A DNA stretch of 64,000 bases from assembly GCA_963726345.1 (NCBI GenBank), contig CAVSCC010000011.1:55605-119604 (forward strand). Reading direction: 5' to 3'. The position numbers and the translations under genes are program-made. This document shows, in pieces, positions 7,638 through 37,866 of this stretch. This DNA is from an uncultured Coriobacteriia bacterium. GTDB lineage: Bacteria; Actinomycetota; Coriobacteriia; Anaerosomatales; JAAXUF01. Under the pieces are notes generated by a model. It worked only from the letters and a program-made list of their open reading frames with translations, was not told the DNA's origin and did no database searches. The stretch's first letter is position 1; each line of letters opens with the position of its first letter.

Positions 7638-7710
7638 CCCGCAGTCTCGCGCCCTGACCGGGACACCGTCCGGGTGCGGCACACACCGAGTACACGACCG
7701 AGACACATGA

Positions 7711-8076
<366 letters not shown>

Positions 8077-8080
8077 ACCC

Positions 8081-21638: not shown

Positions 21639-24398
21639 CTACTTCGCGACCGCCCAGTTCGCCCCGAACGCCACAGACACCTCAAGCGGGACCGCCAGCT
21701 CCGCAACGCCTGACATGACCTCGCGCACCATCGCCGACAGCTGCTCGACCTCGTCGGGCGACGCCTCGAAGACGAGTTCGTCGTGGACCTGCAGCACCAT
21801 GCGGCTGACGTGCCCGTCCGCGCGCAGACGCCGGTCAACCTCGATCATCGCCAGCTTCATGATGTCGGCGGCGGTCCCCTGCATCGGATGGTTCATCGCC
21901 GTACGCTCGCCGAACGAACGCAGGTTGAAGTTGCTGCTCGCGAGCTCGGGGATGCGGCGCTTGCGACCGTAGAGCGTGACCGCGTAGCCCGTTCGATAGG
22001 CCTCGGTCTTGGTCTCGTCGAGGTACGCGCGAACGCGTGGGTAGGCGGCGTAGTAGCGGTCGATCATCTCCTGCGCCTCGGCGTTGGAGATCTTCAGCGT
22101 CTGTGCCAGCCCGTGCGCGCTCTGCCCGTAGACGATGCCGAAGTTCACGGCCTTCGCGCGCGCCCGCATTCCCGGCTCGACTGACTCGGGCGCGACTCCG
22201 AACACACGCCCTGCCGTCGCTTGGTGAAAGTCCATGCCGCTCGTGAACGCCTCGATGAGTCCCTCGTCGCCCGACAGATGCGCGAGGATCCGCAGCTCGA
22301 TCTGACTGTAGTCCGCGGACAGCATCAGGTCGCCGGCGCTCGCCGGCACGAACGCCGCGCGGATGCGCCGCCCATACTCGGTGCGGACCGGGATGTTCTG
22401 CAGATTGGGCCCGCTGCTCGAAAGTCGTCCCGTGGCCGCAACCGTCTGATTGAACGAGGTGTGCAGCCTGCCGTCCCCGCCGAGAAGACGCGGCAGCGCG
22501 TCCAGATACGTGCTCTTGAGCTTGGTCAGCTCGCGATACTCGACGATCTTCTCGGCGATGGGATGCACGGGTGCGAGCATCGCCAGGACTGATGCGTCCG
22601 TCGAATAGCCGGTCTTCGTCTTCTTGCCGTGCGGGAGGCCCAAGCGCTCAAAGAGGACCTCGGAAAGCTGCTTGGGTGAGTCGACCAGGAACTCGCCGCC
22701 CGCGAGCTCGTGGATCTCGGTTCTCAGCGCGTCGATCGAGCCCTCTGCGTCTGCCGACAAGCCCGCAAGCACGCTCGTGTCGAGTCCCACGCCGACGCGC
22801 TCCATGCGCGCAAGCACCGGGACCAGCGGCATCTCGATATCGCGCATGACCACCGAGGATCCATCGGCCTCAAGCCGCAGCTCGAGTTCGGCCGCCAGAT
22901 CGGCGGTCGACTGCGCAAGCACGCTTGCCCGAGACACGTCATCGTCTTCTGCAAGCGTGAGGGGTTCGCCGAGGTAGTCCGCGTTCAGCGCCGAGAGCTC
23001 GTAGGACGAACGGTTCGATTCGAGCAGGTACGCCGCGACGGCCACGTCGAACAGCCGCGCCGGGTCGACAGCCTCAAACGCGGCGCCGCACGGCCGGGCC
23101 TCGTCAGGAGGGCACACCTCCTGAAGCAGCGCCTTCGCATCGGCGGCCGCCACGCGGGCGTCGGCCAGGAGCAGGTCGAGGACCGCATCGACCTGATCGG
23201 GCTGAACGAGCGCGGTCTCCACGGAACTGGCGACCGCAAGGTCGCGCTGGTCGCCGAAGAGCGATGCGACCGCCCCGTCATCGATCGCCACGCCCAGCCA
23301 CTCGGCGGATTCCTCGATCCATTCGCGTATGCGCGCAGCCGCCTCGGGACCGGTCACACAGGCACGCGCCGCGCAGCGTCGGGCGACGGGGATCTCGGTC
23401 GATGACGAGCCGGCAGATTCCTCCCGGACGGGCGCGGACGTGCGCGCCACAGCGGGCTCGGACGACACCGACGACACGGCTGCCGGGCGGGCCGTCTGCC
23501 CTTCAGCGCTGGAACCGACCGCGCCGCCCCGCAGCGCAAGCACTCGGTCAAGCAGCGACGTGAACCTGAGCTCGGCGAAGGCCGTCGCGACCCGGTTCGG
23601 GTCGAACCCGCCGAACTCGACGGCCGCCAAGTCGATGTCCACGGGGACATCGCAGGCGATCGTCGCCACGATCCGGCTGGCGAGCGCTGACTCCTTGTTC
23701 TCGCGAAGTCGCTCTCCCAACTTGCCCGGGATCTCATCGGCGTGTTCGAGCACCGCGTCGAGCGACCCCCACTCCTGCAGCAGCTTCGTGGCGGTCTTCT
23801 CCCCTACTCCGGGCACGCCCGGGATGTTGTCGCTGGTATCGCCCTTCAGGCCGAGGTAGTCCGGCACCTGCGCCGGGGTCACCCCATAGCGGTCGAGCAC
23901 CTCGGCGGGTCCGTAGATGACGATGTCGGTGATGCCCTTCTTGGTGGTCACCACCTTCACGTCATCCGTGACCAGCTGGAAGGCATCGCGATCGCCCGTC
24001 ACGAGCAGCATACGGATTCCCGCGGCCTCCCCTCGGCGGGCAAGCGTGCCGAGAATGTCGTCACCCTCCCACCCCGGAAGCTCGACGATCGGGACGTCCA
24101 GCGCGCCGAGAAGCTCTTTGACCATCGGGAACTGGTCGCGGAGCTCGTGTGCGGTTGGCGGACGGTGGATCTTGTACTGCGCGAGCGCCTCGATCCGGAA
24201 CGCCGGCTTCCCGAGGTCGAAGGCGACGACCACGCCATTCGGCTTCAGGTCCGCGATCATCTTGACGAGCATCGAAATGAAGCCGAAAGCGGCGTTGGTA
24301 GGCCGTCCGTCGGGCGCAGTCATCGTGGGTGGCAGCGCGTGGAACGCGCGGTGAATGAGGCTGTTGCCGTCGATGACGGCGAGCGTGCGCTGGCTCAT
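21639..24398 (-). CDS. polA: DNA polymerase I
   Basis: Intact 919-aa ORF with a 5'-nuclease N-terminus, a linker and a family-A polymerase domain (DYSQIELRILAHLSGDE, QVHDELVFE). Confidence 0.95.
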   Translation of the reverse strand: MSQRTLAVIDGNSLIHRAFHALPPTMTAPDGRPTNAAFGFISMLVKMIADLKPNGVVVAFDLGKPAFRIEALAQYKIHRPPTAHELRDQFPMVKELLGALDVPIVELPGWEGDDILGTLARRGEAAGIRMLLVTGDRDAFQLVTDDVKVVTTKKGITDIVIYGPAEVLDRYGVTPAQVPDYLGLKGDTSDNIPGVPGVGEKTATKLLQEWGSLDAVLEHADEIPGKLGERLRENKESALASRIVATIACDVPVDIDLAAVEFGGFDPNRVATAFAELRFTSLLDRVLALRGGAVGSSAEGQTARPAAVSSVSSEPAVARTSAPVREESAGSSSTEIPVARRCAARACVTGPEAAARIREWIEESAEWLGVAIDDGAVASLFGDQRDLAVASSVETALVQPDQVDAVLDLLLADARVAAADAKALLQEVCPPDEARPCGAAFEAVDPARLFDVAVAAYLLESNRSSYELSALNADYLGEPLTLAEDDDVSRASVLAQSTADLAAELELRLEADGSSVVMRDIEMPLVPVLARMERVGVGLDTSVLAGLSADAEGSIDALRTEIHELAGGEFLVDSPKQLSEVLFERLGLPHGKKTKTGYSTDASVLAMLAPVHPIAEKIVEYRELTKLKSTYLDALPRLLGGDGRLHTSFNQTVAATGRLSSSGPNLQNIPVRTEYGRRIRAAFVPASAGDLMLSADYSQIELRILAHLSGDEGLIEAFTSGMDFHQATAGRVFGVAPESVEPGMRARAKAVNFGIVYGQSAHGLAQTLKISNAEAQEMIDRYYAAYPRVRAYLDETKTEAYRTGYAVTLYGRKRRIPELASSNFNLRSFGERTAMNHPMQGTAADIMKLAMIEVDRRLRADGHVSRMVLQVHDELVFEASPDEVEQLSAMVREVMSGVAELAVPLEVSVAFGANWAVAK

Positions 24399-24469
24399 GA
24401 ACGTCCTTCGGGAGGCCCATCAGGGGTCCGCCGCACTCGATCACGGCATACACAGGAGTGTACCCGAGG

Positions 24470-25141
24470 CTATCCGTTCCAGAGGTAGCCGACGTTGCGC
24501 ACCGTCTCGAGTCGGCGAGACAGCTCGACACCGATCCGCGACCGGATCCGCCTGACGTGGACGTCGACGGTGCGTGAGCCTCCGTAGTAGTCGCTGCCCC
24601 AGACGCGGCGCAGGAGCACCTCGCGGGAGTACGTGCGCCCCGGATGCGTGACGAGGAACGCGAACAGCGCGTACTCGAGGTAGGTGAAGTTGATCGGCTC
24701 GCTGCCGAGGTACGCCTGGTAGGTGGCCAGGTTCAGGGTGAGGTCGTCGAGCCGGATGAGCTCTTGCTTGGTGACCTCTTCGCCGGGCCACAGCAGCGTG
24801 CGCACGCGCACGGCAAGCTCGTCCGAGGTCGCGCCACGCACGAGAAAGTCGCTCGGCACGCGGACGGGAAGCCGAACGCCCTGCAGGCCCTCGGGTTCGA
24901 TCAGGACGAGCAGCCGCAGGTCGGCACCTCCGGCCGCGGCGTGCTCCACGAGTTGGCCGAGCGCGTCCGGCGAACGGCCGCCGTCGAGCAGCACCAGGTC
25001 GACCTCACCCTCGAGAAGGCGCTTCTGCATCTCGCTTGGTACGCACTCCGACAGCTGGACATCCAGGCCACTTACGGCCTGCGACGCCCAAGCGCGGGAG
25101 TGCACGTCATCGGAGACGATAAGAACTCGTTTCATGTGCAC
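24470..25141 (-). CDS. glnR: OmpR-family orphan response regulator, GlnR-like
   Basis: The winged-helix C-terminus (LTLNLATYQAYLGSEPINFTYLEYALFAFLVTHPGRTYSREVLLRRVWGSDYYGGSRTVDVHVRRIRSRIG...VRNVGY) closely parallels actinobacterial GlnR as I recall it. The receiver domain is atypical. No cognate kinase is adjacent. It lies directly downstream of glnA. Confidence 0.6.
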   Translation of the reverse strand: MHMKRVLIVSDDVHSRAWASQAVSGLDVQLSECVPSEMQKRLLEGEVDLVLLDGGRSPDALGQLVEHAAAGGADLRLLVLIEPEGLQGVRLPVRVPSDFLVRGATSDELAVRVRTLLWPGEEVTKQELIRLDDLTLNLATYQAYLGSEPINFTYLEYALFAFLVTHPGRTYSREVLLRRVWGSDYYGGSRTVDVHVRRIRSRIGVELSRRLETVRNVGYLWNG

Positions 25142-25253
25142 GATGATACCCTCTCCGTCCGGGGTGCCGGTTCGGATGCGAGCGACGCCGGACGAGGGTC
25201 TCCCCCGCCCGGCGTCGTTGCCGTGACAGTGAGCGCGTTACGTGCGCGCTTGA

Positions 25254-26591
25254 CTAGATGACAGACAGGTACTTGTCGAGCTCCCACTCAGTGACCTGCA
25301 TGCGGTACTCGTCCCACTCCGCACGCTTGTTGGCGACGTAGAAGGCGTGGATGTGCTCGCCGAGGACTTCCTTCATGAGCTCCGAGTGCTCGAAGAGGTC
25401 GATCGCCTCGCCGAGCGTACCCGGCAGGATGTTGATGCCGGCGGTCTCGAGCTCCTCGTCGCTCATGTGGAAGATGTTGTTCGTTGCTTCCGGCATGAGC
25501 GGGAGCTTCTCCTCGATGCCCTTCAGGCCAGCGCCGAGCATGCAGGCGAAGGCGAGGTAGGGGTTGGCCGAGGGGTCCGGTGAGCGCAGCTCGAGGCGAG
25601 TGGCGTTCTCCTTGCCGGGCTTGTACATCGGCACGCGGACGAGCGCCGAGCGGTTGCGGCGGGCCCAAGCGATGTAGACCGGAGCCTCGTAGCCGGGAAC
25701 CAAGCGCTTGTAGGAGTTGACGAGCGGGTTGGTGACCGCAGTGAACTCCGGCGCGTACTTGAGCAGGCCGGCGATGTAGTGCTTGGCGACCTCGGACAGG
25801 TTGTAGCCCTGCGGATCGTTGGCATCGAAGAACGCGTTGCCGTCCTTGCTGAAGAGCGACTGGTGAACGTGCATGCCCGAGCCGTTCTGACCGAAGATCG
25901 GCTTCGGCATGAAGGTGGCGTACACGCCGTTCTGCAGCGCGATCTCCTTCACGACCAGGCGGTAGGTCATGACGTTGTCGGCCATCGACGTGGCGTCGCA
26001 GTAGCGCAGGTCGATCTCGTGCTGCGAGGGGGCGACCTCGTGGTGCGAGTACTCGACCGGAATGCCCATCTTCTCCAGCGTCAGCACGGTCTCGCGACGA
26101 AGGTCGCTCGCGATGTCGAGCGGCGTCAGGTCGAAGTAGCCACCGTTGTCGAGAACCTCGGTGTCCTGATCGTCGGCGAAGTAGAAGAACTCGAGCTCGG
26201 GACCGACGTACATGGTGAAGCCCATGTCGGCGGCCTTGTCGGTCATGCGGCGAAGAGCGTAGCGAGGATCGCCCTCGAACGGCTCGCCGTCAGGCTTGAC
26301 GATGTCGCAGAACATGCGGCCGACGCCCTGCTCGGTGGGACGCCAGGGAAGGACCGCGAACGACTCGGGGTTCGGGATCGCGATCATGTCGGACTCTTCG
26401 AGGCGCGTGAAGCCGTCGATGGAGGAGCCGTCGAAGCCCATGCCCTCCTCGAACGCATTCTCGAGCTCGGTATCGGTGACGGCGAACGACTTGAGCATGC
26501 CAAGTACGTCGGTGAACCAGAAGCGGACGAAGTGCACGCCGCGCTCTTCCACGGTCTTGAGGACGTAGTCCTTATCGAACGTCGGTGCCAT
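25254..26591 (-). CDS. glnA: Glutamine synthetase, type I (alpha-like, 445 aa)
   Basis: Intact ORF: VHFVRFWFTDVLGMLKSF..., GFDGSSI, PKPIFGQNGSGMHVHQSLF, NRSALVRVP. Confidence 0.95.
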   Translation of the reverse strand: MAPTFDKDYVLKTVEERGVHFVRFWFTDVLGMLKSFAVTDTELENAFEEGMGFDGSSIDGFTRLEESDMIAIPNPESFAVLPWRPTEQGVGRMFCDIVKPDGEPFEGDPRYALRRMTDKAADMGFTMYVGPELEFFYFADDQDTEVLDNGGYFDLTPLDIASDLRRETVLTLEKMGIPVEYSHHEVAPSQHEIDLRYCDATSMADNVMTYRLVVKEIALQNGVYATFMPKPIFGQNGSGMHVHQSLFSKDGNAFFDANDPQGYNLSEVAKHYIAGLLKYAPEFTAVTNPLVNSYKRLVPGYEAPVYIAWARRNRSALVRVPMYKPGKENATRLELRSPDPSANPYLAFACMLGAGLKGIEEKLPLMPEATNNIFHMSDEELETAGINILPGTLGEAIDLFEHSELMKEVLGEHIHAFYVANKRAEWDEYRMQVTEWELDKYLSVI

Positions 26592-26672
26592 ACCAGCCTC
26601 CCTTTCGTGGCGCGCATCTGCGTGCCGTCTTGAGGATTACCTGTGCGTACTACCCAAGCCTAGCCGAGCAAT

Positions 26673-26688
26673 GTTTCGGAAGTGTTTC
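26673..26688 (-). promoter_or_regulatory. GAAAC-N6-GAAAC direct repeat, candidate GlnR-type box upstream of glnA
   Basis: The minus strand reads GAAACacttccGAAAC about 82 nt upstream of the glnA ATG. Distance and orientation match the amt site. Confidence 0.4.
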
Positions 26689-26723
26689 GCTTTCCGCGGA
26701 TCCTGCACGAGTCTCGAAAAGTC

Positions 26724-26758
26724 GTAGACGGGGCGGGCTCGATCCCCGCCCCGTCTAC
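26724..26758 (-). terminator. Rho-independent terminator after the glt operon
   Basis: 14-bp perfect stem GTAGACGGGGCGGG/CCCGCCCCGTCTAC, followed on the minus strand by GACTTTTCG. It lies 27 nt after the GltB3 stop. Confidence 0.6.
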
Positions 26759-26784
26759 CCAGGGTGACCGCAATGCGTGGCCCG

Positions 26785-27604
26785 TTACAGGTACGTGTAC
26801 AGCTTCCCGTAGGGCCGGTGGCTGACCGGAACCAGCTTCGTGAACGGCTCCGAGAGCACCTCGTCGAGGTCCATCCCCAGCGCCTCGCAGTACTCGGCGA
26901 GCACCGGCCGAATCTCAGCCATGTCGTCCTCGTTGGCCGAGAAGACACCGACCTCCTTGCCGCACTGCCACGGCTCGACCTCGCCGCGCAGGTAGATCGC
27001 GCCACCGTGCATTCCGGTGCCGAGATAGCCGCCGACCAGCGGCCCCTCGAGGCGCGAGTTCATCCCCAGCAGGATCAGCAGTCCGCCGGCCATGTACTCG
27101 CCGAAGAAGTCGCGCGCCTTGCCTCCGCACACCATGATCGGCCGCAGGTCCTCGTAGGCCTTCATGTGTATTCCGACGCGATAGCCGACGTCGCCGCTGG
27201 ATGAACACCTTGCCGCCGCGCATCCCGTAGCCGAGAACGTCACCGGCGTCGCCGTGGATCACGACCTTGCCGGCGTTCATCGTGTTGCCGACGCCGTCCT
27301 GTCCGTTGCCGAACACCTCGACGGTCGGACCGTCCATGAACATCGCCATGTCCTGCCCGGGCGTCCCGTGAACCTCGATCGTGAGGTCCTTGCCCTTGAT
27401 GCCGGTGCCGATGTAGCGCTGGCCGTTGACGTTCTCCAGCACGACCTTCTTGACGCCATCGGCGAACGCCGCCCGAATCGCCGCGTTCATCTGCTTGTAG
27501 TAGACGCTCTGGACGTCCAGCGTGAGCACGTCGCCCTCGCGCTTGCCGGAGGGCTCGGTCTGCGAGTATCCCTCGACTAGACCCTTGGTTTTCGTAGCGG
27601 TCAC
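26785..27604 (-). pseudogene. Glutamate synthase GXGXG-domain subunit (GltB3-like), one frameshift near 27200
   Basis: GTG 27604 follows a GGGGAGGG RBS. ORF 26915..27694 carries VVLENVNGQRYIGTGIKGKDLTIEVHGTPGQDMAMFMDGPTVEVFGNGQDGVGNTMNAGKVVIHGDAGDVLGYGMRGGKVFI. It continues in ORF 26785..27243 with GDVGYRVGIHMK...GGLLILLG...GTGMHGGAIYLRG. Confidence 0.8.
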
Positions 27605-27620
27605 AGTAGTCCCTCCCCTT

Positions 27621-29133
27621 CTACAGACCCGCGGGCTTGACGCCCAGGATCTCGCAGGTCTGAGCGTCGAGCCCCACGGCACGCAACCGCTCACGGCTGC
27701 CGCGCAGGGACTCCACCGCGTTCACGCCCAGCGCGCCGAGGATCTCCTGCAGTTCGTGGCTCCACGCGTGAACCAGGTTGACGAGCCGCTCGGCGCCCCA
27801 CTCGGGGTCGACTCGGCGGGTGAGCTCCGGCCTTCTGCGTGGTCAGGCCCCACGAGCAGCAGCCGGTGTGGCAGCCCTGGCAGAGGTGACAACCCAGCGC
27901 CATCAACGACGCCGAACCGATGGCCACGACGTCGGCACCGAGCGCGATCGCCTTTGCCGCATCCGCCGAGGAGCGGATCGAACCGGCGGCGATGATCGAG
28001 GCTTGGTTGCGGATGCCCTCGTCGCGCAGACGCTGGTCGACGACCGCGATCGCGATCTCGAGCGGAATGCCGACGTGGTCGCGGATGATCGCGGGGGCCG
28101 CACCGGTACCGCCCTTGAAGCCATCGAGGTAGACGTAGTCCGCGCCGGCCCGAACGATGCCCGACGCGATCGCGCCCACGTTGTGGACCGCCGCGATCTT
28201 GACGCCCACGGGCTTGTAGCCCGACGCCTCCTTGAGGGAGTAGATGAGCTGCCGCAGGTCCTCGATCGAGTAGATGTCGTGGTGCGGCGCCGGGCTGATC
28301 GCATCCGAGCCCTGCGGGATCATGCGCGTGGTGGAGACTTCCTTGTTGATCTTCTCGCCCGGCAGGTGGCCGCCGATGCCCGGCTTGGCGCCCTGACCGA
28401 CCTTGATCTCGATGGCGGCGCCGCGCTGCAGGTACTCGGGCGTGACGCCGAAGCGGCCCGACGCGACTTGGACGATGACGTTGTCCTGGTAGGGATACAG
28501 GTCGGCGTGCAGTCCGCCCTCGCCCGTGTTCATCAGCGTGCCGAGACGCTCGGCGGCCATCGCGAGCGACTTGTGCACGTTGAGCGAGACCGAGCCGTAG
28601 CTCATCGGCGAGAAGATGATCGGCGTGTCGAGCTTGACGTTGTTGGCGATGCCCGCGCCCTCGGAGAGCCTGAACCCGCCCTTGCCGTCGGACTCGACCT
28701 CGACGCTGTCGGGCTTGCGGCCCAGGTAGGTGCGCAGCTCCATCGGCTCGCGCAGCGGGTCGATGGACGGGTTGGTGACCTGGCACGCGTCGAGCACCAG
28801 GTGGTCGAAGATGCTCTGGTAGGGCTTGTCGTTGCCCATGCCGGTGAGCATGACGCCGCCCGACTCGGCCTGGCGCCAGACGTTCTTGCGCTGCTCGGAA
28901 GACCAGTTGGCGTTCTCGCGCAGCGCGAGGTCGTTCTTCTTGATCGTGATGCAGTGCGCGGGGCAGTACGTCACACAGCGGTGGCACGCGCGGCACTTGA
29001 TGTCGTCGGGGAACGGGCGCTCGTTGAACGAGTACACGCCCCAGCCGCACTGCTGCACGCAGCGGCCGCACTTGTGGCACTTGTCGTAGTCGATCTCTAC
29101 CTTGAACTCAGGTTGCATGAGGCTCGTCGGCAT
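27621..29133 (-). pseudogene. Glutamate synthase FMN subunit with N-terminal 2x[4Fe-4S] ferredoxin domain (archaeal GltB2 type), one frameshift near 27830
   Basis: Motifs: CHKCGRCVQQC...CRACHRCVTYCP, then KVGQGAKPGIGGHLPG, YLDGFKGGTGAAP and CQGCHTGCCSWG. After the shift the frame continues ELTRRVDPEWGAERLVNLVHAWSHELQEILGALG... to TAG at 27621 (checked by hand). Confidence 0.85.
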
Positions 29134-29136
29134 CGG

Positions 29137-30411
29137 TTATCCCACCTCGACAATCTCGCAGGAATCGTGCACGCCGGTGACGGCGCAGCTGACTTCGCCC
29201 GCCGAGAGGTGCAGGTCGCCGTGGATCGGCCAGTCCATGCCCTTGACGCGGGCGATGACCGGCTCACCGGCCTTGGGGGCCCAGACGCGGTCGGGCGCGT
29301 CGAGCACCTCGCGCATCGCGCTCTCTTCCGAGGCGACCATGATCTTGGTGCCCTGCTGTGCGGCGACCAGCGGCCGCAGCTTGATGCGGTCGTTGAGCGC
29401 GACCATGCCGCCGTTGAAGCCGAGCACGATCGCGAACGGCCCGTTGAGCATCGCGGGACCGTAGACCGCGCGCAGCGAGCGCATCACGGCCTGCTCCTCG
29501 GCGGGCATGCGGTCGATCTCGGTCCAGAGCGGGCTCGCGAGCGCCTTGCAGGCGAGCTCGAGGGGGAGCTTGTGTCGGCGAAGCATGAGGTCGAACAGGT
29601 ACGCGGCGACTTCGGTGTCGGTGCCGAGCGTGCACTTGTAGCCGAACGCCTCGAGGTAGCGGCTGTTGATGCCGTAGCTCGAGATCTCTCCGTTGTGCAC
29701 GATGGCCCAGTCCAGAAGCGTGAACGGGTGCGCGCCGCCCCACCAGCCGGGGGTGTTGGTCGGGAAGCGGTTGTGGCCGATCCACGTGTGCCCGGCGTAC
29801 TCCTCGAGCAGGTAGTAGTGGCCGATCTCCTCGGGGAAGCCCACGCCCTTGAACGCGCCCATGTTCTTGCCGCTCGAGGAGACGAACGCCCCGTCGACGC
29901 TGCCGTTGATGAGCATGACCGTGTGGACGACGAAGTCCTCAGGGGTCATCTCGCTGTTCTCGAGCTTGTGCGGGTCGGGCTGCAGGAAGTAGCGCCACAG
30001 GATCGGCGCGTCGCTGATGCCCTTGACCGCGCGCGTCGGCATCGGCTCGGCGAGGTCGACCGTGAAGTACTGGTCGAAGACAGCCTCAGCCTCTTCCTTA
30101 GCCTTGATGTCGTGATACATCATGTGGAAGCAGAAGTGGTCGGGGAACTCCGGGTAGATGCCGTAGCCCGCATATCCCCCGCCGAGCCCGTTGCCGCGGT
30201 CGCGCTGGACCGCCATCGCCTTGATGGCCTCGACGCCGCTCATCAGCTCGCCGGACTCGTCACAGATGCCCATGAGGCCGCAGCCTCCGTGGATCTTGTA
30301 GGCGGCCTCCTCGGCGTAGCGCGGGCGCACGCCGAGGCCGGAGTCGTCGCGGACGGCCGCAGGGCGCGTCGTCGGCATCCGGTCCAACAGTGGTTCGTAC
30401 GCCATGATCAC
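29137..30411 (-). CDS. Class-II (Ntn) glutamine amidotransferase subunit (GltB1-like)
   Basis: 424 aa: GGCGLMGI..., RDRGNGLGGG, HNRFPTNTPGWWGGAHPF, HNGEISSYG. The GTG/ATG start overlaps the stop of the Hdr-like gene. Confidence 0.8.
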   Translation of the reverse strand: MIMAYEPLLDRMPTTRPAAVRDDSGLGVRPRYAEEAAYKIHGGCGLMGICDESGELMSGVEAIKAMAVQRDRGNGLGGGYAGYGIYPEFPDHFCFHMMYHDIKAKEEAEAVFDQYFTVDLAEPMPTRAVKGISDAPILWRYFLQPDPHKLENSEMTPEDFVVHTVMLINGSVDGAFVSSSGKNMGAFKGVGFPEEIGHYYLLEEYAGHTWIGHNRFPTNTPGWWGGAHPFTLLDWAIVHNGEISSYGINSRYLEAFGYKCTLGTDTEVAAYLFDLMLRRHKLPLELACKALASPLWTEIDRMPAEEQAVMRSLRAVYGPAMLNGPFAIVLGFNGGMVALNDRIKLRPLVAAQQGTKIMVASEESAMREVLDAPDRVWAPKAGEPVIARVKGMDWPIHGDLHLSAGEVSCAVTGVHDSCEIVEVG

Positions 30412-31748
30412 TCATCTCCTTCGCATGATTCGCAGCGCGCCATGATGCGCGCCATCGCGTCGCCGCCGCTCTCCGGCAGCGGGGACAGTCCGAGCTTCCT
30501 GCGCGCGCCCTCTTTCGGCTGGCCGAGAGACCCGGTGTCGAGAAACATCTCGTAGGACTTGCGGACCGACTCCGGGCCGGTTCCTCGCTCGATCGCGATC
30601 TCCTTGAGCTTGCGGAAGACCTCGGCCATCCCGATGTCGGAGTGGCAGAGCTCCTGGCACGTGTAGCACTCGAGGCACTTCCAGAGCGCACCGTCGGCGA
30701 TGACTTCGTCGAGCTCGCCGCGTACGAGCTGGTTGATGATGTCGTTGGGCTGGAAGGTCGGATCGACCTTGCACACCGGGCAGTCGTCCTTGCAGGCACG
30801 GCAGCTGTCGCACTTGTTGAGCATCGCGACGTCGAAGTCCAGAGCCAGGCGGGCCTTGTCGGCGGAGCGGTCGGCCCACTTGTCGAGGAACGGCTTGACG
30901 CTGACCCGGTGCATGTCCATGCCGAGCTCCTCGGGCTCGTGGCCGTAGGCCAAGGCGATGAGCTCCGAGAGGTAGATGACCGGCACGTTGACGTTCTCGT
31001 TGGCTCGCTGGAGCGCCGCCTGGTTCAGGTCGAACTGCTGGAAGCAGCTCGGGCACACCACCACGAGCGCGTCGACGTCGTGATTCTGCAGGTCGTGAAG
31101 CTTGCGTCGGCAGAAGGCGAGCGAGGAGTCCCGCTCGCCGACACGGTCGAGGGCGCCGCCGCAGCACTGCATCTTGGTCGGGTAGTCGACCACCCGCGCA
31201 CCGAGCGCGGTGACCAACTCCTCGACCTTCTTGGGATGCAGCGGATCGTCCCACCGGACCGCCGGCTGCGGACGCAGCAGGTGACAGCCGTAGTGAACGG
31301 CGATCCGCATGCCCCAGAAGTTCTTCTTGGCGCCGCTGGCGATGAGGCCGGCACCCATCGAGTCCGAGAGCCACTCGGCGAAGTGAAGAACCTGGAGGCT
31401 GCCGTCGTAGTGCAGGTCCTCTGCCGCCAGGCGCTCGTTGATGACGTCCTTCTCGCGCCAGTCGGTCTTCAGGTGGCTCTGCGCTTCCTTGAACGTCGAG
31501 TAGCAGCCGTTGCACGGCGTCACGACGTCGAGACCGGCCTTCTCAACGATGGCGAGGTTACGGGCCGCCGCGGTGTAGAACGCATCGGGATCGTTGGCCT
31601 TGACCAGCGTCCCCTCGGGACAGCACGTGTGGCCCGGCAGCTCGGCAACCCGAGCGCCGAGATCGTCGAACATCACCCGGGTCGCCTTCTCGATGAACGG
31701 GAACCGCGCGGGGATCGTGCACCCCCAGAAGACCGCGAACTCCTTCAT
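30408..31748 (-). CDS. HdrB-HdrC fusion protein (two CCG domains followed by a 2x[4Fe-4S] HdrC-like domain)
   Basis: From ATG 31748: MKEFAVFWGCTIP..., TCCPEG...CNGCY, then HYGCH...QCCGG...CPSCF (HdrB pattern). This is followed by CDSCRACKDDCPVC...WKCLECYTCQELCHS (HdrC pattern). Confidence 0.8.
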   Translation of the reverse strand: MKEFAVFWGCTIPARFPFIEKATRVMFDDLGARVAELPGHTCCPEGTLVKANDPDAFYTAAARNLAIVEKAGLDVVTPCNGCYSTFKEAQSHLKTDWREKDVINERLAAEDLHYDGSLQVLHFAEWLSDSMGAGLIASGAKKNFWGMRIAVHYGCHLLRPQPAVRWDDPLHPKKVEELVTALGARVVDYPTKMQCCGGALDRVGERDSSLAFCRRKLHDLQNHDVDALVVVCPSCFQQFDLNQAALQRANENVNVPVIYLSELIALAYGHEPEELGMDMHRVSVKPFLDKWADRSADKARLALDFDVAMLNKCDSCRACKDDCPVCKVDPTFQPNDIINQLVRGELDEVIADGALWKCLECYTCQELCHSDIGMAEVFRKLKEIAIERGTGPESVRKSYEMFLDTGSLGQPKEGARRKLGLSPLPESGGDAMARIMARCESCEGDE

Positions 31749-31900
31749 GTGACTCGCCTTTCGTTGTGAACTCGCCGAAGAGAACGAAAAACGCCCGCTC
31801 AACCCCCTACTCGGGGCCGGGCGAGCGACTCTGCTCGTCATCTTCGATTCAGCACGCCGTTGTGCTGCCGGGAGATTGTATCACGCGCGAGGCGCGAGGC

Positions 31901-31916
31901 GAAACATCGCGGAAAC
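31901..31916 (+). promoter_or_regulatory. GAAAC-N6-GAAAC direct repeat in the intergenic region upstream of the hdr-glt operon (inverted relative to the operon)
   Basis: The plus strand reads GAAACatcgcgGAAAC, 153-168 nt upstream of ATG 31748 and directly beside the terminator of the preceding gene. Confidence 0.3.
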
Positions 31917-31919
31917 GAA

Positions 31920-31947
31920 GAGGAGGGGCCGAACGCGGCCCCTCCTC
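31920..31947 (-). terminator. Hairpin terminator after the FMN GltS-like gene
   Basis: 11-bp stem GAGGAGGGGCC/GGCCCCTCCTC with a 6-nt loop, followed on the minus strand by TTCGTTTCC. It lies 25 nt after the stop at 31972. Confidence 0.5.
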
Positions 31948-31971
31948 CACCAAACATCGTCGTCGAGGGAG

Positions 31972-33564
31972 CTACCCCTCGATGATCCGCATCGCCTCGT
32001 CGCGATATGCATCGGTCACGAAGGGAATGCCGGAGATCTCGGCGGCATCCCGGGTGAGCGCCATGAGGTCGCTGCGGCTGATCGTGTTGAGTCGCATGTT
32101 GCGCGAGCCGCTCATGAGCTGCTGCAGCCCCACCTTGATCTTGTCGGAGTAGGTGTAGATTCCCAGCGCACCCATGGGGAACTTGTCTGCCTCGTCACCG
32201 TACTCGGCCTTCAGCGTCTCGTAGGTCACGAATATCTCTTCCTTCGTCGTACCGAATGCCGAGACCGACTTGGGAAGGTCCTGCTCCTTCATCCACAGCT
32301 CGATGTTCTTGCCGACAAACCCCGGGATCATGAGCGCGCGGCCCATGCACACGGCCTTGGCGTGCGGCGCACCGAGCGCGAGGACCTTGAACACGTGGTC
32401 CTCGGTGGAGAAGCCGCCCGCCATCGCGATATCGGGAACGAACGCGCCCTGCGACGCGAGCTTCTCGAGCAGCTCGTTGGCCATGCACTGGAGATAGAAG
32501 GTCGGGACGCCCCACTCCTCCATCATCCGCCACGGGCTCATGCCGGTTCCGCCGGGAGCGCCGTCTATCGTGAGGAGGTCGATCTTGGCGTTGCTGGCCC
32601 ACTTGATCGCCATGGCCAGCTCGCGCATCGGGTAGGCGCCGGTCTTGAGGGTGACCCGCTGAACACCCAGATCCCGAAGTCGCTGGACCTCGGCGTAGAA
32701 CCCTTCCTCATCGACGAAGCCGAGACGGCTGTGGCGCTCGAACTGGCGGATAGCGCCGTCTGCAAAGGCCTTCTGGATCGCAGGATCGGAAGGGTCGGGG
32801 GTGACCAGGTAGCCGCGCTTCTGCAGCTCCAGCGCGCGGTCCAGGCTGCCCACCTTGATCTCGCCGCCGATGCACTTGGCGCCCTGGCCCCACTTGAGCT
32901 CCATCGTGGTGACACCGAGCTTCTCGACGCAGTACTCGGCGACTCCGAGGCGGGTGTCCTCGACGTTCATCTGCACGAGGATGTCGCCGTAGCCGTCCTG
33001 CTGATACCGGCGGAACAGCTCCACCCGGCGCTTCATGTCGGGTGCGTTCGCGACCTTGCCGTGTTTGTCCAGCTCAAGGTCCGGGTCGATGCCGCAGACG
33101 TTCTCTCCGCACACGATCGAGACGCCAGAGATGGCAGCGCCGACGGCGAAGTGCTCCCAGTTCTTGCGGGCGATCTCGGTCGAGCCGAGCGCACCCGTGA
33201 AGATCGGGACCTTCATCTTCACCTTGTTCGTGTGGCCGAATTCGGTCTCGGTGCTCACCATGGGGAAGAGCGTGTTGTCCGGGTTCCCTTCCACGCCGTC
33301 GGGCAGCCCCTTCGCACCCAGCGCATAGCCCTGGATGTTGAGATGCGAGTAGTCGATGGGATAGTCCTTGTCGCCACCGGCAGTGACCTCGCCGAACGGA
33401 CCGGGGTAGATGACCTCCCGACCGCGGAACGACGACTTGAAGACCTCACAGTTGCCGCGGCACCCATCGACGCAACGAGCGCACAGCCCGGAGCCGGGGA
33501 CAACATCCTTCGAGCGATTCGCCGTCTGTGTGGCGTCGCTCCCCTTGGGACACTGCAGATTCAT
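31972..33564 (-). CDS. FMN-binding glutamate synthase family protein (second GltB2-like paralogue, no ferredoxin domain)
   Basis: From ATG 33564 (MNLQCPKG...): CARCVDGCRGNC, then KWGQGAKCIGGEIK, IDGAPGGTGMSP and MAGGF. The ORF is intact. Confidence 0.8.
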   Translation of the reverse strand: MNLQCPKGSDATQTANRSKDVVPGSGLCARCVDGCRGNCEVFKSSFRGREVIYPGPFGEVTAGGDKDYPIDYSHLNIQGYALGAKGLPDGVEGNPDNTLFPMVSTETEFGHTNKVKMKVPIFTGALGSTEIARKNWEHFAVGAAISGVSIVCGENVCGIDPDLELDKHGKVANAPDMKRRVELFRRYQQDGYGDILVQMNVEDTRLGVAEYCVEKLGVTTMELKWGQGAKCIGGEIKVGSLDRALELQKRGYLVTPDPSDPAIQKAFADGAIRQFERHSRLGFVDEEGFYAEVQRLRDLGVQRVTLKTGAYPMRELAMAIKWASNAKIDLLTIDGAPGGTGMSPWRMMEEWGVPTFYLQCMANELLEKLASQGAFVPDIAMAGGFSTEDHVFKVLALGAPHAKAVCMGRALMIPGFVGKNIELWMKEQDLPKSVSAFGTTKEEIFVTYETLKAEYGDEADKFPMGALGIYTYSDKIKVGLQQLMSGSRNMRLNTISRSDLMALTRDAAEISGIPFVTDAYRDEAMRIIEG

Positions 33565-33653
33565 GCGTCGTACCCCTCCCCTGTATCGATGCTCCCCGCG
33601 CATTTGCGGATGGGCCATTTATGCGGCATCTTGAGTGATATTGCAATCTGTAC

Positions 33654-33680
33654 GAAACCTGCTGGAAATACGGTCGAAAC
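33654..33680 (+). promoter_or_regulatory. Triple direct repeat GAAAC-N6-GAAAT-N6-GAAAC upstream of the second glnA
   Basis: Reads GAAACctgctgGAAATacggtcGAAAC and ends 21 nt before ATG 33701, immediately 5' of the AGGAG RBS. It is shared with the divergent FMN GltS-like gene. Confidence 0.4.
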
Positions 33681-33700
33681 AATTAGGAGTGTGAACCCGC

Positions 33701-35029
33701 ATGCCGACCCATCTTCGCACCGAGGCTGTGGCAAGGATCGTTGAACAGAACGTGGAGTTCATTCATCTGTGGTTCACGGACGTTCTGGGATTCCTCAAGA
33801 CCTTCGTCATCACCGTCGACGAGCTCGACACGGCCATGACCGAAGGAATGGGGTTCGACGGCTCCTCGATCCAGGGGTTCGCGCGAATCGAGGAGTCGGA
33901 CATGGTGGCGATGCCCGATCCCACCACGCTCCAGATCCTGCCTTGGCGCCAAGAGGGACAGCCGGTCGCGACGATGTTCTGCGATATCGTCAGGCCGGAC
34001 GGAAGCCCGTATGAAGGCGACCCCCGCTACGTCCTGAAGAGGAACCTGAAGCGCGCGGCGGACCTGGGCTTCACGTTCTTCGTGGGACCGGAGCTCGAGT
34101 ACTACTACCTGAAGAACGATGCGGTGCCCGAGGTCGTCGACCACGGCACGTACTTCGACCAGACGACACGCGACCTTGCGGTTGACCTGCGCAACCAGAC
34201 GGTGCGCACGCTCAAGAGCTTCGGGATCCAGGTCGAGTACAGCCACCACGAAGTGGGCCCGAGCCAGCACGAGATCGACCTGCGCTACAACGAGGCGCTC
34301 AAGATGGCCGACGGGGTGATGACGTACCGCCTGGTCGTCAAGGAGGTGGCGCAACTCAGCGACCTCTACGCGACCTTCATGCCCAAGCCGATCTACGGCG
34401 AGGCGGGAAGCGGCATGCACGTCCATCAGTCGCTCTTCAAGGGTGACTCGAACGCCTTCTACGACCCCGCCGACGAGTTCCACCTCTCGCAGACGGCCAA
34501 GAGCTACATCGCCGGCCTGCTGCACCACGCACGCGCCATCAGCGCCGTGACGAACCAGTGGGTGAACTCCTACAAGCGGCTGGTTTCGGGCTACGAGGCA
34601 CCCGTGCACATCTGCTGGGCACACCGCAACCGCTCGGCACTCGTCCGCGTCCCGATGTACAAGCCGGGCAAGGAGAAGGCCACGCGGATCGAACTGCGCT
34701 CCCCCGACCCCGCCTGCAACCCCTACCTCGCCTTCTCGGTCATGCTCGCCGCCGGACTCGACGGCATCGAGCGGGGCCTCACACTGCCCGACGACGTTAC
34801 CGACGACGTCTACGAGATGAGCGCCGAGCAGCGCGCGGCGGCGGGAATCGGACAGCTTCCCGAGAACCTCAAGGAGGCCATCGACGAGCTGGAGAAGAGC
34901 GAGCTGTTGCGCGAGGCGCTCGGCGAGCAGGTCTTCAGGTGGCTGATCCGCAACAAGCGCATCGAGTGGCACCAGTACCGCACCCGCGTCACGCAGTGGG
35001 AGATCGAGGAGTACCTGCCGCTGCTCTAG
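33701..35029 (+). CDS. glnA: Glutamine synthetase, type I (second alpha-like paralogue, 442 aa)
   Basis: Intact ORF: VEFIHLWFTDVLGFLKTF..., GFDGSSI, PKPIYGEAGSGMHVHQSLF, NRSALVRVP. It is collinear with the 25254..26591 copy. Confidence 0.95.
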   Translation: MPTHLRTEAVARIVEQNVEFIHLWFTDVLGFLKTFVITVDELDTAMTEGMGFDGSSIQGFARIEESDMVAMPDPTTLQILPWRQEGQPVATMFCDIVRPDGSPYEGDPRYVLKRNLKRAADLGFTFFVGPELEYYYLKNDAVPEVVDHGTYFDQTTRDLAVDLRNQTVRTLKSFGIQVEYSHHEVGPSQHEIDLRYNEALKMADGVMTYRLVVKEVAQLSDLYATFMPKPIYGEAGSGMHVHQSLFKGDSNAFYDPADEFHLSQTAKSYIAGLLHHARAISAVTNQWVNSYKRLVSGYEAPVHICWAHRNRSALVRVPMYKPGKEKATRIELRSPDPACNPYLAFSVMLAAGLDGIERGLTLPDDVTDDVYEMSAEQRAAAGIGQLPENLKEAIDELEKSELLREALGEQVFRWLIRNKRIEWHQYRTRVTQWEIEEYLPLL

Positions 35030-35039
35030 CCGGACGGAT

Positions 35040-35677
35040 CTAGCCGAGAAGCCCGGCGACGCCCGCGCCCACGGCGAACAGCACCGAACGCCGCCACGAC
35101 CGCGCCCGAGACGCGATTCACCACGTGGACGCCTCGGTCACTGACTGCGTGTCGCATCAGCGCGACCCCGGTGCTCAGGACCAGCCACCATGACAGCGAG
35201 CCCAGCGCCACCCCGAGCGTGGCCACGGCCGCCGAGGAACCGGTCGCCTGGCCGACGAGGCCCGCTCCCGCGAATACCGCGGCGAACGCCATGATCGTCA
35301 TCGGATTCGTGAGCGTCAGTCCGAACGCGCTCGAGTAGAGCGCCCAGCCGCGCCATGATGCCCTGTGCCCGAGCTGCCTCGTGTGAGGGTGGAGCCACGA
35401 TCGCCCGCCAGCCGAGCCAGATCAGGACGAGCCCGCCGACGATGCGCAGCGGCACCTGTGCCGAGACGAGCAGCTGCGAGAACACCGTCAGACCGAACGC
35501 GGCGAGTCCGGCGTAGAGGGCATCCGCGGTTGCGATTCCCGCGCCGGTGGCGGCCCCGGCGCGCCAGCCGTGCGACAGCACGCGCTGGATACACAACACG
35601 CCCATCGCCCCAACGGGGGCGGCAACGGCGATTCCGATGACGAACATCCGCGCGAACAGCGCCGAGGCTTCGCTCAC
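35040..35677 (-). pseudogene. LysE/RhtB-family amino-acid exporter, about 2 frameshifts
   Basis: ORFs 35138..35677 (MFVIGIAVAAPVGAMGVLCIQRVL...) and 35026..35301. The hand-derived C-terminus GAVFAVGAGVAGLLG-stop is only reached after a shift near 35085. Confidence 0.75.
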
Positions 35678-35681
35678 GCGC

Positions 35682-36251
35682 CTACTCGGCCGCCTCGTTC
35701 GCGATGACGACCGCCTCGGCGATCTCCTTCAGCGTCTTGCGCTTGTCCATCGCGAGCTTCTGGAGCCGCTTGAACGCGTCGGCCTCCGACATGCCGCGCG
35801 CCATGAGGATCCCCTTCGCGCGGTCGACGGTCTTGCGCGTCTCCAGGCGTTCGCCAAGGTCCTCGACTTCGGCGGCCAACGCTGACGCCTCGGCGAAACG
35901 CGCGATCGCCAGCGACATCGCGGGAAGCACGTCGGTGCGGGTGAACGGCTTGACGACGTAGGCCATCGCCCCGGCCGACGCGGCCTGTTCGACGTAGGCA
36001 CCCTGCGAGAACGCGGTGACCATGACCACCGGCGCGATTCGCTCGGCGCCGATCACCTCGGCGGCCTCGAGACCGCCGACGCCGGGCATGTTGATGTCCA
36101 TGAAGACGATGTCGGGCGTGAAGGACCGGGCGAAACTGACGGCTTCTGCGCCGTCACGGGCCTCGGCGACGATCTCGTGACCCTCCTCCTCGAGCATCTC
36201 TCGAAGATCCATGCGGATGAGCGCCTCGTCCTCGGCGATGAGCACGCGCAA
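35682..36251 (-). CDS. pdtaR: ANTAR-domain response regulator (PdtaR-like)
   Basis: Receiver domain (MRVLIAEDE...DIVFMDINMP...VVKP) plus ANTAR domain (RKTVDRAKGILMARGMSEADAFKRLQKLAMDKRKTL). TTG start after GAGGAG. Confidence 0.85.
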   Translation of the reverse strand: MRVLIAEDEALIRMDLREMLEEEGHEIVAEARDGAEAVSFARSFTPDIVFMDINMPGVGGLEAAEVIGAERIAPVVMVTAFSQGAYVEQAASAGAMAYVVKPFTRTDVLPAMSLAIARFAEASALAAEVEDLGERLETRKTVDRAKGILMARGMSEADAFKRLQKLAMDKRKTLKEIAEAVVIANEAAE

Positions 36252-36254
36252 GAG

Positions 36255-37691: not shown

Positions 37692-37743
37692 ATGCGCAGT
37701 ATACCCGCGCCGTCGGCTATAATCTGCCGAGCACATCACCCAA

Positions 37744-37830
37744 GCCCGGGTGGCGGAACAGGCAGACGCGCCGGTCTCAAAAACCGGTTGTCGAAAGACA
37801 GTGCGGGTTCGATCCCCGCCCCGGGCACCA
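37744..37830 (+). tRNA. tRNA-Leu (anticodon CAA), CCA encoded
   Basis: Hand-folded. Acceptor GCCCGGG/CCCGGGC. Anticodon stem CCGGU/ACCGG with loop CUCAAAA. Long variable arm UGUCGAAAGACA. T-arm GCGGGUUCGAUCCCCGC. Ends ACCA. Confidence 0.95.
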
Positions 37831-37866
37831 CGCGCGCTCTCGCGCGACGGTTCCGGCGGGACGCGC

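Follow-up and report, generated by a model that had tools for sequence, protein, structure and literature searches.

This work concerns a stretch of 64,000 nt (hereafter the window) from an uncultured freshwater Coriobacteriia bacterium (contig CAVSCC010000011.1 of assembly GCA_963726345.1, positions 55,605-119,604 of the forward strand), and within it a minus-strand operon in which a gene for a fused HdrB-HdrC protein (hdrBC) is followed by three genes, gltB1, gltB2 and gltB3, for the separate modules of a glutamate synthase (GOGAT). Together with glutamine synthetase (GS), GOGAT is the main route of ammonium assimilation, and to our knowledge it has never been established what reduces the split, archaeal-type enzyme in the cell. 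Judging from the sequences compared here, the locus represents a real, conserved and apparently uncharacterized GOGAT variant. We propose that it encodes a four-protein glutamate synthase in which HdrBC replaces GltD as the electron input and is fed by a dithiol, with the operon under ANTAR antitermination, a reading to which we assign a probability of roughly 0.55.

According to this proposal, GltB1 would hydrolyze glutamine, and GltB2, by means of its ferredoxin domain, a further iron-sulfur (Fe-S) cluster and flavin mononucleotide (FMN), would reduce the 2-iminoglutarate made from 2-oxoglutarate and the released ammonia, while GltB3 would serve as the structural GXGXG module. The HdrB-HdrC fusion, presumably in a physical complex with these proteins, would stand in for the NAD(P)H-oxidizing GltD as the electron-input module. 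A dithiol would be oxidized at the two non-cubane [4Fe-4S] clusters of the HdrB part, that is, by HdrB chemistry run in reverse, comparable to thiol:fumarate reductase, and the electrons would pass from the HdrB clusters to two HdrC clusters, then to the ferredoxin domain of GltB2, and finally to FMN. At the level of expression, a PdtaS/ANTAR system would stabilize two hexaloop hairpins in the leader, prevent formation of a terminator and so turn the operon on. A neighbouring glnA and a gene for a GlnR-like regulator would complete the GS-GOGAT unit.

An HdrB-HdrC fusion linked to a split glutamate synthase

The HdrBC protein carries two CCG domains followed by a Fer4 dicluster, with the HdrB model TIGR03288 matching residues 34-321 and the HdrC model TIGR03290 residues 342-458 of the long open reading frame (ORF). 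Both NCBIfam scores lie below the equivalog cut-offs (261.5 against 345.15 for HdrB, and 61.2 against 160 for HdrC), and a partial match to TfrB (E 5e-25) was also obtained. Sequence searches of the PDB gave E 2e-63 for the HdrB part, against the methanogen HdrB chain 8rvu_b, and about 1e-11 for the HdrC part. An AlphaFold2 (AF2) model of the protein (pLDDT 88) superposed on the HdrB subunits of 8rvy, 5odc and 7bkb with a target-normalised TM of 0.92-0.93, a root-mean-square deviation (rmsd) of 2.0 Å and 35-39% identity, and on HdrC with a TM of 0.52-0.58; LutA was a more distant Foldseek match. Both CCG motifs (CX31-39CCX35-36CXXC) are complete, the first comprising C10, C42C43 and C79xxC82, and the second C155, C195C196 and C232xxC235. 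The HdrC part adds two ferredoxin CxxCxxCxxxC motifs, C313-C323 and C358-C368. All ten CCG cysteines and the eight cysteines of the ferredoxin motifs are invariant in three alignments, one of close homologues (A1), one of 25 representatives with 30-45% mutual identity (A2), and a mixed one (A5).

HdrBC thus has, like the methanogen HdrABC enzymes (5odc, 8rvu and 7bkb), both CCG motifs and both HdrC dicluster motifs in complete form. It differs from them in that HdrB and HdrC are fused, B then C, in that equivalog similarity is not reached, and in its hosts, which are Coriobacteriia and a metagenome-assembled genome (MAG) of the Eubacteriales; judging from their taxonomy, these bacteria would lack methanogenesis as well as coenzymes M and B (CoM and CoB). 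Moreover, the window region and all the loci fetched and examined were without a gene for HdrA, MvhD or HdrE. The B-then-C order is the reverse of that in HdrD, GlcF and GlpC.

The operon is compact, with intergenic gaps of 2, 3 and 16 nt, the shortest of which separates the hdrBC stop codon from the likely gltB1 start, the ATG at 30405. The encoded GltB1 is 79% identical (tblastn) to that of a close relative, locus L001, and its candidate nucleophile is the Cys in KIHGG-CGLMGI, which follows an N-terminal extension of about 41 aa; the corresponding context in the distant homologue of locus L087 is SG-CAISGI. Such an extension implies that a propeptide would be removed, as in bacterial GltS and PurF. 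Its length varies, as only six residues (RIPSG-C) precede the Cys in a distant Eubacteriales homologue. The FMN domain of GltB2 matches the GltS alpha subunits 7mfm, 1llw and 1ea0 at E 1e-60, and its Cys-rich motif CxxCxxCxxxCC (LGCHLCQGCHTGCCSWG) aligns to the canonical LGCVMMRACHLDTCPVG, the 3Fe-4S ligand site of GltS. GltB3 matches GXGXG (PF01493) with 71 and 40.5 bits on two pieces in different frames. The three modules of a glutamate synthase were therefore all found, namely an N-terminal nucleophile (Ntn) amidotransferase with a candidate Cys, a PF01645 FMN domain with Fe-S ligands, and GXGXG. We regard GltB1-3 as a split archaeal-type glutamate synthase, predicted to carry out Gln + 2-oxoglutarate + 2e- -> 2 Glu.

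These assignments bear out an earlier sequence-only reading of this DNA, whose GATase_2, Glu_synthase, GXGXG, CCG and Fer4 modules were all matched by profile hidden Markov models. Its further claim that the cluster has no GltD-like subunit and no GltB of about 1500 aa also held, as neither gene was detected in the cluster by Pfam or NCBIfam scans. Compared to the archaeal/Thermotoga-type split GOGAT, the window operon shares the same three modules as separate proteins, the N-terminal 2x[4Fe-4S] domain of GltB2, and a four- or five-Cys motif at the site of the bacterial GltS 3Fe-4S cluster. It differs by its fourth, universally linked HdrB-HdrC gene, by its bacterial host (Coriobacteriia, with a Eubacteriales MAG among the relatives), and by the pre-Cys extension of GltB1. 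Reviews state that archaeal ORFs for separate GltS domains exist, and say no more (PMC8097209).

An enzyme of another function also has to be weighed here. N-methylglutamate synthase (MgsABC) consists of the three modules also seen in split GOGAT, two GS homologues flank the cluster, and with the type-III and gamma-glutamylputrescine synthetase models both of these score appreciably, if below threshold, so that the GltB-like trio could be MgsABC, or another enzyme using a gamma-glutamyl amine, acting with a GS-like gamma-glutamylamide synthetase. This alternative is disfavoured, and we consider it most improbable. Both GS proteins pass the GlnA equivalog TIGR00653 (cut-off 429) with 539 and 532 bits, and both fall short with TIGR03105, the type-III/GmaS-type model (334.8 for glnA and 334 for glnA2, against 469.6). 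The gene order is B1-B2-B3, as opposed to the mgsA-B-C order of amidotransferase, GXGXG and FMN modules, and no N-methylglutamate dehydrogenase (mgd-like) genes were found in the window region or in the loci of relatives. Furthermore, the ferredoxin domain and cluster motif of GltB2, together with four more Fe-S clusters in the operon, would suit a net reduction rather than a redox-neutral transfer, and the neighbours are ammonium-assimilation regulators.

The strongest support for the proposal of a four-protein GOGAT comes from a census of gene neighbourhoods. One genome per GTDB species was scanned, HdrBC relatives were found in 202 species, and the best 80 were mapped; these are environmental Coriobacteriia/Anaerosomatales-type MAGs. 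The resulting close series holds 84 loci, including the 80 GTDB species, with 72-94% identity to the window HdrBC, and its genes were mapped with the intact proteins of L001 as queries. A distant series holds 80 metagenome loci; its reference is a Eubacteriales homologue that shares about 45% identity with the HdrBC of the window, and to which these loci are 41-58% identical. Homologues of HdrBC number in the hundreds at 74-96% identity, the named ones being Coriobacteriia MAGs, and HMMER searches of 50%-identity representatives added about 25 full-length B-C fusions at 31-53% identity. Throughout the close series gltB1 directly follows hdrBC (84/84), with gltB2 and gltB3 next wherever the contig extends. 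The three genes are also clustered with HdrBC wherever the locus extends in the metagenome series and in the contexts of four distant fusions recovered by profile search. Altogether, 169 loci with HdrBC were collected, of which 7 end just past it, and gltB genes lie in the same cluster in every one of the remaining 162. At least five gene orders occur, including HdrBC-B1-B2-B3, B1-B2-B3-HdrBC and B1-HdrBC-B2-B3.

Because the linkage persists across this divergence and these rearrangements, HdrBC would be expected to work with the GOGAT proteins, and the census is strong evidence for a functional partnership. The sequence-only reading had suggested, with due caution, that HdrBC brings electrons into a split GOGAT linked to ferredoxin or to thiols and disulfides, and this is now supported by co-conservation in 162 of 162 informative loci from two identity series, and by the linkage to lipoyl genes described below; none of the refuting tests that were run spoke against it. 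It had also taken the pairing to be uncharacterized, with which our full-text literature search agrees: no description of the pairing, and no link of GOGAT to HdrBC, CCG proteins or lipoate, was found among papers outside subscription-only journals. The family is broad, extending over at least 202 GTDB species and a distant metagenome series, with the catalytic genes always tied to an HdrBC-type protein.

Candidate electron donors

We then turned to the possible source of electrons. A gene for dihydrolipoyl dehydrogenase (E3, Lpd) lies inside the operon in 8 of the 169 loci (L087, L088, L092-L094, L096, L098 and L099), and these eight loci also encode a free 77-aa lipoyl domain (seven loci), LipA (three) and LipB (two). 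The lipoyl-gene stretch spans positions 3685-6904 in L087 and L088. At least three arrangements were seen, namely B1-B2-B3-Lpd-LipB-LipA-carrier-HdrBC, B3-Lpd-carrier-HdrBC-B1-B2, and B1-B2-B3-Lpd-LipA-HdrBC, and the hosts are one Eubacteriales MAG and several metagenome contigs. In the loci tested, the enzymes exceed their NCBIfam equivalog cut-offs: the dehydrogenase that of TIGR01350, at 409 (569 bits in L087 and 497 in L093), and those of L087 in addition TIGR00214 (172 against 84) and TIGR00510 (392 against 310). Lipoyl domains of E2 proteins are the best match of the carrier, and the Lys is kept in VEM[SF]TSKAVF.

Since genes for a reductase, a carrier and cofactor attachment adjoin an HdrB-type site in these distant loci, their content points to a protein-bound dithiol as the substrate of that site, and the donor in some lineages is probably the dihydrolipoyl group on the free 77-aa lipoyl domain. 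Electrons would there flow from NAD(P)H through Lpd to the dihydrolipoyl domain, and on through HdrBC and the Fe-S clusters of GltB2 to FMN. With potentials of about -290 mV for lipoamide and about -130 mV for the couple of 2-oxoglutarate plus NH3 and glutamate, such a chain would run downhill. Cooperation between Hdr-like complexes and proteins that bind lipoate has a precedent (PMC6067878). As to the clade of the window, electrons might come from ferredoxin, from a lipoyl protein with a housekeeping role (GcvH, for instance) or from some other thiol. A glycine cleavage system is encoded by cultured members of the Anaerosomatales (PMC9686372), the order whose label some related MAGs carry; lipoyl proteins are therefore present in that order, which is only permissive.

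Several points weigh against the dithiol-fed reading. Searches by tblastn with E3, LipB, LipA and the lipoyl carrier gave no match in the window or the 84 Coriobacteriia loci, and an unbiased clustering of neighbouring ORFs in the Coriobacteriia loci returned only PdtaS, ANTAR, glnA, glnR-like, GNAT and LysE genes plus antisense artefacts, with no candidate thiol partner among them. E3 and lipoyl genes accompany the operon in only the eight loci listed above, so that a thiol donor in the window's own Coriobacteriia clade is a pure inference. The ferredoxin domain of GltB2 could accept electrons directly from ferredoxin. Moreover, the sub-cut-off HdrB and HdrC scores mean that the protein is not a bona fide CoB-CoM heterodisulfide reductase, and, were the frameshifts of gltB2 and gltB3 treated below real, the operon would be dead in this strain.

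A rival reading takes HdrBC for a dedicated GOGAT subunit that serves as an Fe-S wire or for docking only, with no thiol chemistry at the CCG site; the electrons would come from a hydrogenase, from reduced ferredoxin or from a flavoprotein like HdrA or MvhD whose gene lies elsewhere. In its favour, 161 of the 169 loci are without a neighbouring thiol-carrier or E3 gene, and the hosts are strict anaerobes with an abundance of ferredoxin-linked enzymes and hydrogenases (PMC9686372). GltB2, moreover, has a ferredoxin-type domain of its own, and other CCG proteins, SdhE and the more distantly matching LutA, are not disulfide reductases. Nevertheless, the ten CCG cysteines are invariant in a family with 30-45% mutual identity, the HdrB part is close to true HdrB (36-39% identity, rmsd 2.0), and no HdrA or MvhD gene occurs in any locus. 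Furthermore, repeated recruitment of E3 and a free lipoyl domain beside HdrBC would be hard to explain without dithiol handling. We consider the wiring role doubtful. A dithiol-driven glutamate synthase, in which dihydrolipoate, or another dithiol in Coriobacteriia, would deliver electrons to HdrB-type clusters and through some seven Fe-S clusters to the GOGAT flavin, is put forward tentatively.

The proposed dithiol-fed enzyme can be set beside known systems. TfrAB of methanogens is an anabolic reductase in which thiols, CoM-SH and CoB-SH, are oxidized at a C-terminal CCG module, and it is in concept nearest to the proposed mechanism, differing in its fumarate reductase flavoprotein partner and in its thiols. 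The NADPH-dependent GltS (GltBD) and the F420-dependent FGltS have the same catalytic core with a separate electron-input module; the input module of the window is a CCG-domain Fe-S protein, neither the FAD/NADPH module of GltD type nor the F420 module of FrhB type. Swapping of the input module is documented for F420-dependent glutamate synthases (PMC9012536). The sHdr-LbpA system of sulfur oxidizers (PMC6067878) resembles the distant loci, for instance L087 and L093, in tying an Hdr-like Fe-S protein to a small lipoate carrier and lipoylation enzymes. Unlike in that system, the distant relatives have a lipoyl domain of E2 type as the carrier and LipB and LipA of the classical kind, HdrA, sulfur transferases, DsrE and TusA are absent, and the partner is an amidotransferase/FMN enzyme; moreover, the lipoyl linkage is confined to a minority of lineages and absent from the window and the 84 Coriobacteriia loci.

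If the proposal is true, HdrBC would provide the first known case of an HdrB-type module that feeds an amidotransferase, and lipoate would for the first time be seen to act as an electron carrier in nitrogen assimilation; for at least one large anaerobic group, the reductant of split archaeal-type GOGATs would also be named in concrete terms. Confirmation would widen the known roles of CCG-domain proteins and lipoate, improve the annotation of thousands of 'heterodisulfide reductase subunit B' genes in non-methanogens, and bear on the way in which the reducing power spent on nitrogen assimilation is accounted for in anaerobic sediment and wetland bacteria. Cultured relatives exist (Anaerosoma and Parvivirga), and the lipoyl hypothesis is testable with four to eight recombinant proteins.

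The hdrBC leader and its candidate regulator

The 223-nt region upstream of hdrBC holds a possible extended -10 element, two hexaloop hairpins and a strong terminator. The hexaloops, AACGGC and AGAGTC, have A at position 1 and G at position 4 and lie 12 nt apart, and the 5' arm of the terminator overlaps the 3' arm of the second hairpin. This dual A..G.. hexaloop motif has its sole instance in the 64 kb here, either strand considered, and it was found in 59 of the 84 leaders of relatives as compared to 13 of 1680 shuffles. Hairpin 1 shows compensatory changes in five of its six pairs in an alignment of 40 leaders (A4); to be counted against the proposal is that these leaders were picked for having both hairpins, which inflates the percentage of paired positions for those helices and leaves the terminator covariation unaffected. 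Column 59 of the alignment covaries both with column 44, within hairpin 2 (CG 23, UA 7), and with column 89, within the terminator (GC 26, AU 14), and this double covariation is the signature of mutually exclusive structures.

PdtaS and ANTAR regulator genes lie upstream of hdrBC in most close relatives. The tandem hexaloop stem-loops, the competition with a terminator and the ANTAR regulator encoded nearby make the response regulator at 35682-36254 the candidate regulator of the hdrBC leader, a pairing we infer from their arrangement. In these respects the locus resembles known ANTAR systems (EutV, NasR, AmiR and PdtaR), with tandem A1/G4 hexaloops, a terminator overlapping the second of them, and an adjoining ANTAR regulator and PdtaS-type kinase. 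It differs in that the target is a GOGAT operon, in that binding is predicted only, and in that no Rfam family matches: a scan of positions 24000-38000 at E<=1 gave one tRNA, and no riboswitch or ANTAR family. The leader would represent a defined RNA switch for a GOGAT operon.

Two wetland metatranscriptomes contain contigs 88-99% alike along hdrBC through gltB3; none of them runs over the terminator/leader gap at 31848-32081, and there is little on the FMN paralogue encoded upstream. Being transcripts of relatives, these contigs show only that the operon is transcribed in nature.

Gene map, frameshifts and neighbouring genes

The features of the cluster are listed in Table 1. Every gene position of the sequence-only reading was confirmed by Pfam and NCBIfam scans; gltB2 and gltB3 carry one extra base each, which it did not report, and the ANTAR leader had been overlooked. 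Its terminators 3' of gltB3 and of the FMN paralogue were found again by direct reading of the sequence, which shows G+C-rich hairpins followed by T-runs. Both were left unflagged, as was the -10 element, by a scan with consensus promoter and terminator models, whose three matches are intragenic.

Table 1. Features of the nitrogen-assimilation cluster, in window coordinates.
Feature	Position	Strand	Evidence
GlnR-like OmpR-family transcription regulator, atypical receiver domain	24470-25141	(-)	Trans_reg_C E 5.5e-21
glnA, type I glutamine synthetase	25254-26591	(-)	Gln-synt_C E 4.6e-134; TIGR00653 538.8 bits, cut-off 429
Intrinsic terminator 3' of gltB3	26715-26758	(-)	By eye: GTAGACGGGGCGGG-gatcga-CCCGCCCCGTCTAC, then gacTTTTCG
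gltB3, GXGXG subunit, split by one extra base near 27196	26785-27604	(-)	Pfam GXGXG
gltB2, N-terminal 2x[4Fe-4S] ferredoxin domain and FMN synthase domain, split at 27828-27831	27621-29133	(-)	Glu_synthase E 9.1e-126; Fer4
gltB1, class-II Ntn glutamine amidotransferase subunit	29137-30405	(-)	GATase_2 30.9 bits, cut-off 19.9
hdrBC, HdrB-HdrC fusion, 446 aa	30408-31748	(-)	CCG E 4.3e-30; Fer4 dicluster
ANTAR-type antiterminator leader	31786-31867	(-)	Hairpins 31867-31850 and 31837-31822; terminator 31827-31786
Putative extended -10 element TGATACAAT for the hdrBC operon	31875-31883	(-)	By eye
Intrinsic terminator 3' of FMN paralogue	31913-31948	(-)	By eye: GGAGGAGGGGCC-gcgttc-GGCCCCTCCTC, then TTCGTTT
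Divergent FMN-binding glutamate-synthase-family protein, 530 aa	31972-33564	(-)	Glu_synthase E 6.8e-14, residues 303-431 only
glnA2, second type I GS, divergent from FMN paralogue	33701-35029	(+)	Gln-synt_C E 4.1e-130; TIGR00653 531.5 bits, cut-off 429
ANTAR response regulator (PdtaR-like)	35682-36254	(-)	Response_reg E 7.9e-27; ANTAR E 1.7e-20
PdtaS-like histidine kinase, frameshifted near 36476	36255-37310	(-)	HisKA_2 E 4.8e-24

Both gltB2 and gltB3 are read in two frames, owing to one extra base at 27828-27831 in gltB2 (AAG-GCCG-GAG) and one near 27196 in gltB3 (CAG-C-GGC). The Pfam GXGXG match of gltB3 is split accordingly (profile positions 12-109 in one frame and 104-167 in the other), and the intact 278-aa GltB3 of L001 aligned to the window by tblastn as two segments in different frames. 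Removal of a single base restores full-length GltB2 and GltB3, the latter as a 272-aa protein once one C is taken out, while the true C-terminus of GltB2 lies in the other frame, up to the TAG at 27621. Both extra bases are absent from related metagenomic DNA and metatranscriptomic RNA contigs; no read run contained the window (best word share 0.18), so that this comparison rests on relatives that are about 95% alike. The same kind of frameshift is widespread: a codon-usage Viterbi pass over the whole window detected about 20 same-strand frame switches at places other than stop codons, or about one per 3 kb, and the four sites inspected, in uvrB (~17230), trpB (~52366), a UbiB-type kinase gene (~12887) and the PdtaS kinase gene (~36476), are all split likewise. 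The PdtaS kinase is intact in relatives (467-470 aa, with GAF_PdtaS, HisKA_2 and HATPase domains). Since this kind of frameshift hits uvrB, trpB and other genes, and since relatives lack the extra bases, the extra bases of gltB2 and gltB3 almost certainly arose in assembly, as is typical where long reads are left unpolished, and any ORF-based reading of the window requires frameshift-aware translation.

That both +1 frameshifts are real, and the operon a decaying pseudogene cluster in this strain, we regard as very unlikely. Two independent single-base insertions in adjacent genes, neither of them common to any related DNA or RNA contig, would fit such decay. However, the like frameshifts in uvrB, trpB, the UbiB-type kinase, PdtaS and about 15 other places would be incompatible with a living cell, other long-read MAGs of the census (L013, L016, L029, L058 and L060) show the same split matches, and the coding sequence is otherwise conserved, with 86-94% amino acid identity to GltB2 of L001. 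Programmed frameshifting was also considered, and dropped, since the sites lack conservation, the genes of relatives read in frame, and housekeeping genes are affected too.

On one side of the cluster lie polA, rpsA, coaE and uvrB, on the other LysE and MFS transporter genes and uvrD, and the G+C content is about 67% throughout the window, with a flat composition across the cluster. With housekeeping flanks, flat G+C and conserved synteny, it is a chromosomal nitrogen-assimilation cluster; the earlier label of 'nitrogen island', if taken in the sense of a mobile element, was rejected. The tRNA found by Rfam (56 bits) has a long variable arm and lies at 37744-37827 (+), between the PdtaS kinase gene and the MFS transporter gene.

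The glnA gene beside the operon encodes a protein 78% identical to glnA of L001 (tblastn), and it is followed by the gene for the GlnR-like regulator, which gave a weak match to GlnR_1st (E 5e-4, 20.3 bits against a cut-off of 27) and none to Response_reg in the Pfam scan. The same glnA and GlnR-like pair lies beside the operon in many relatives, distant ones included, and is downstream of it in many loci of the close series. The product of glnA2 is 60% identical to the same L001 protein. The adjacent 530-aa FMN paralogue has an N-terminal CxxCxxxCxxxC motif and homologues of 79-95% identity in a very large Coriobacteriia set, where they are annotated as 'FMN-binding glutamate synthase family protein'. 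Searches with it returned no NCBIfam match and no PDB sequence match, and its AF2 model is poor (pLDDT 59, with a shallow alignment), giving only generic FMN/TIM-barrel matches in Foldseek, such as lactate oxidase and IMPDH (TM 0.3-0.5). The divergent pair of FMN paralogue and type I GS is also kept at a distance from hdrBC, in the Coriobacteriia isolate Es71-Z0120 (L085) and in an Anaerosomatales MAG (L086), at 6547-9590, and the paralogue adjoins hdrBC in a minority of hdrBC loci only. As judged from this distribution, glnA2 and the FMN paralogue constitute a separate, conserved two-gene module of a GS and a flavoprotein.

Further observations were made on the loci of relatives. One subclade (L001, L042, L051, L053, L056, L057, L060, L067 and L080) has a GNAT acetyltransferase gene, absent from the window, about 550 nt after gltB3, on the opposite strand and convergent, between gltB3 and glnA. 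The record titles of some MAGs (Acidobacteriota, Aeromicrobium and Eubacteriales; L013, L067 and several of L006-L065) conflict with their Coriobacteriia-type content at 75-88% identity, and these are probably mislabelled bins. Finally, in one Anaerosomatales MAG (L090, 1151-6828), a branched-chain/amide-type ABC transporter and an FmdA/AmdA-family amidase are encoded between the PdtaS/ANTAR genes and hdrBC, which suggests that the same regulon also imports and hydrolyzes amides or urea-like nitrogen sources.

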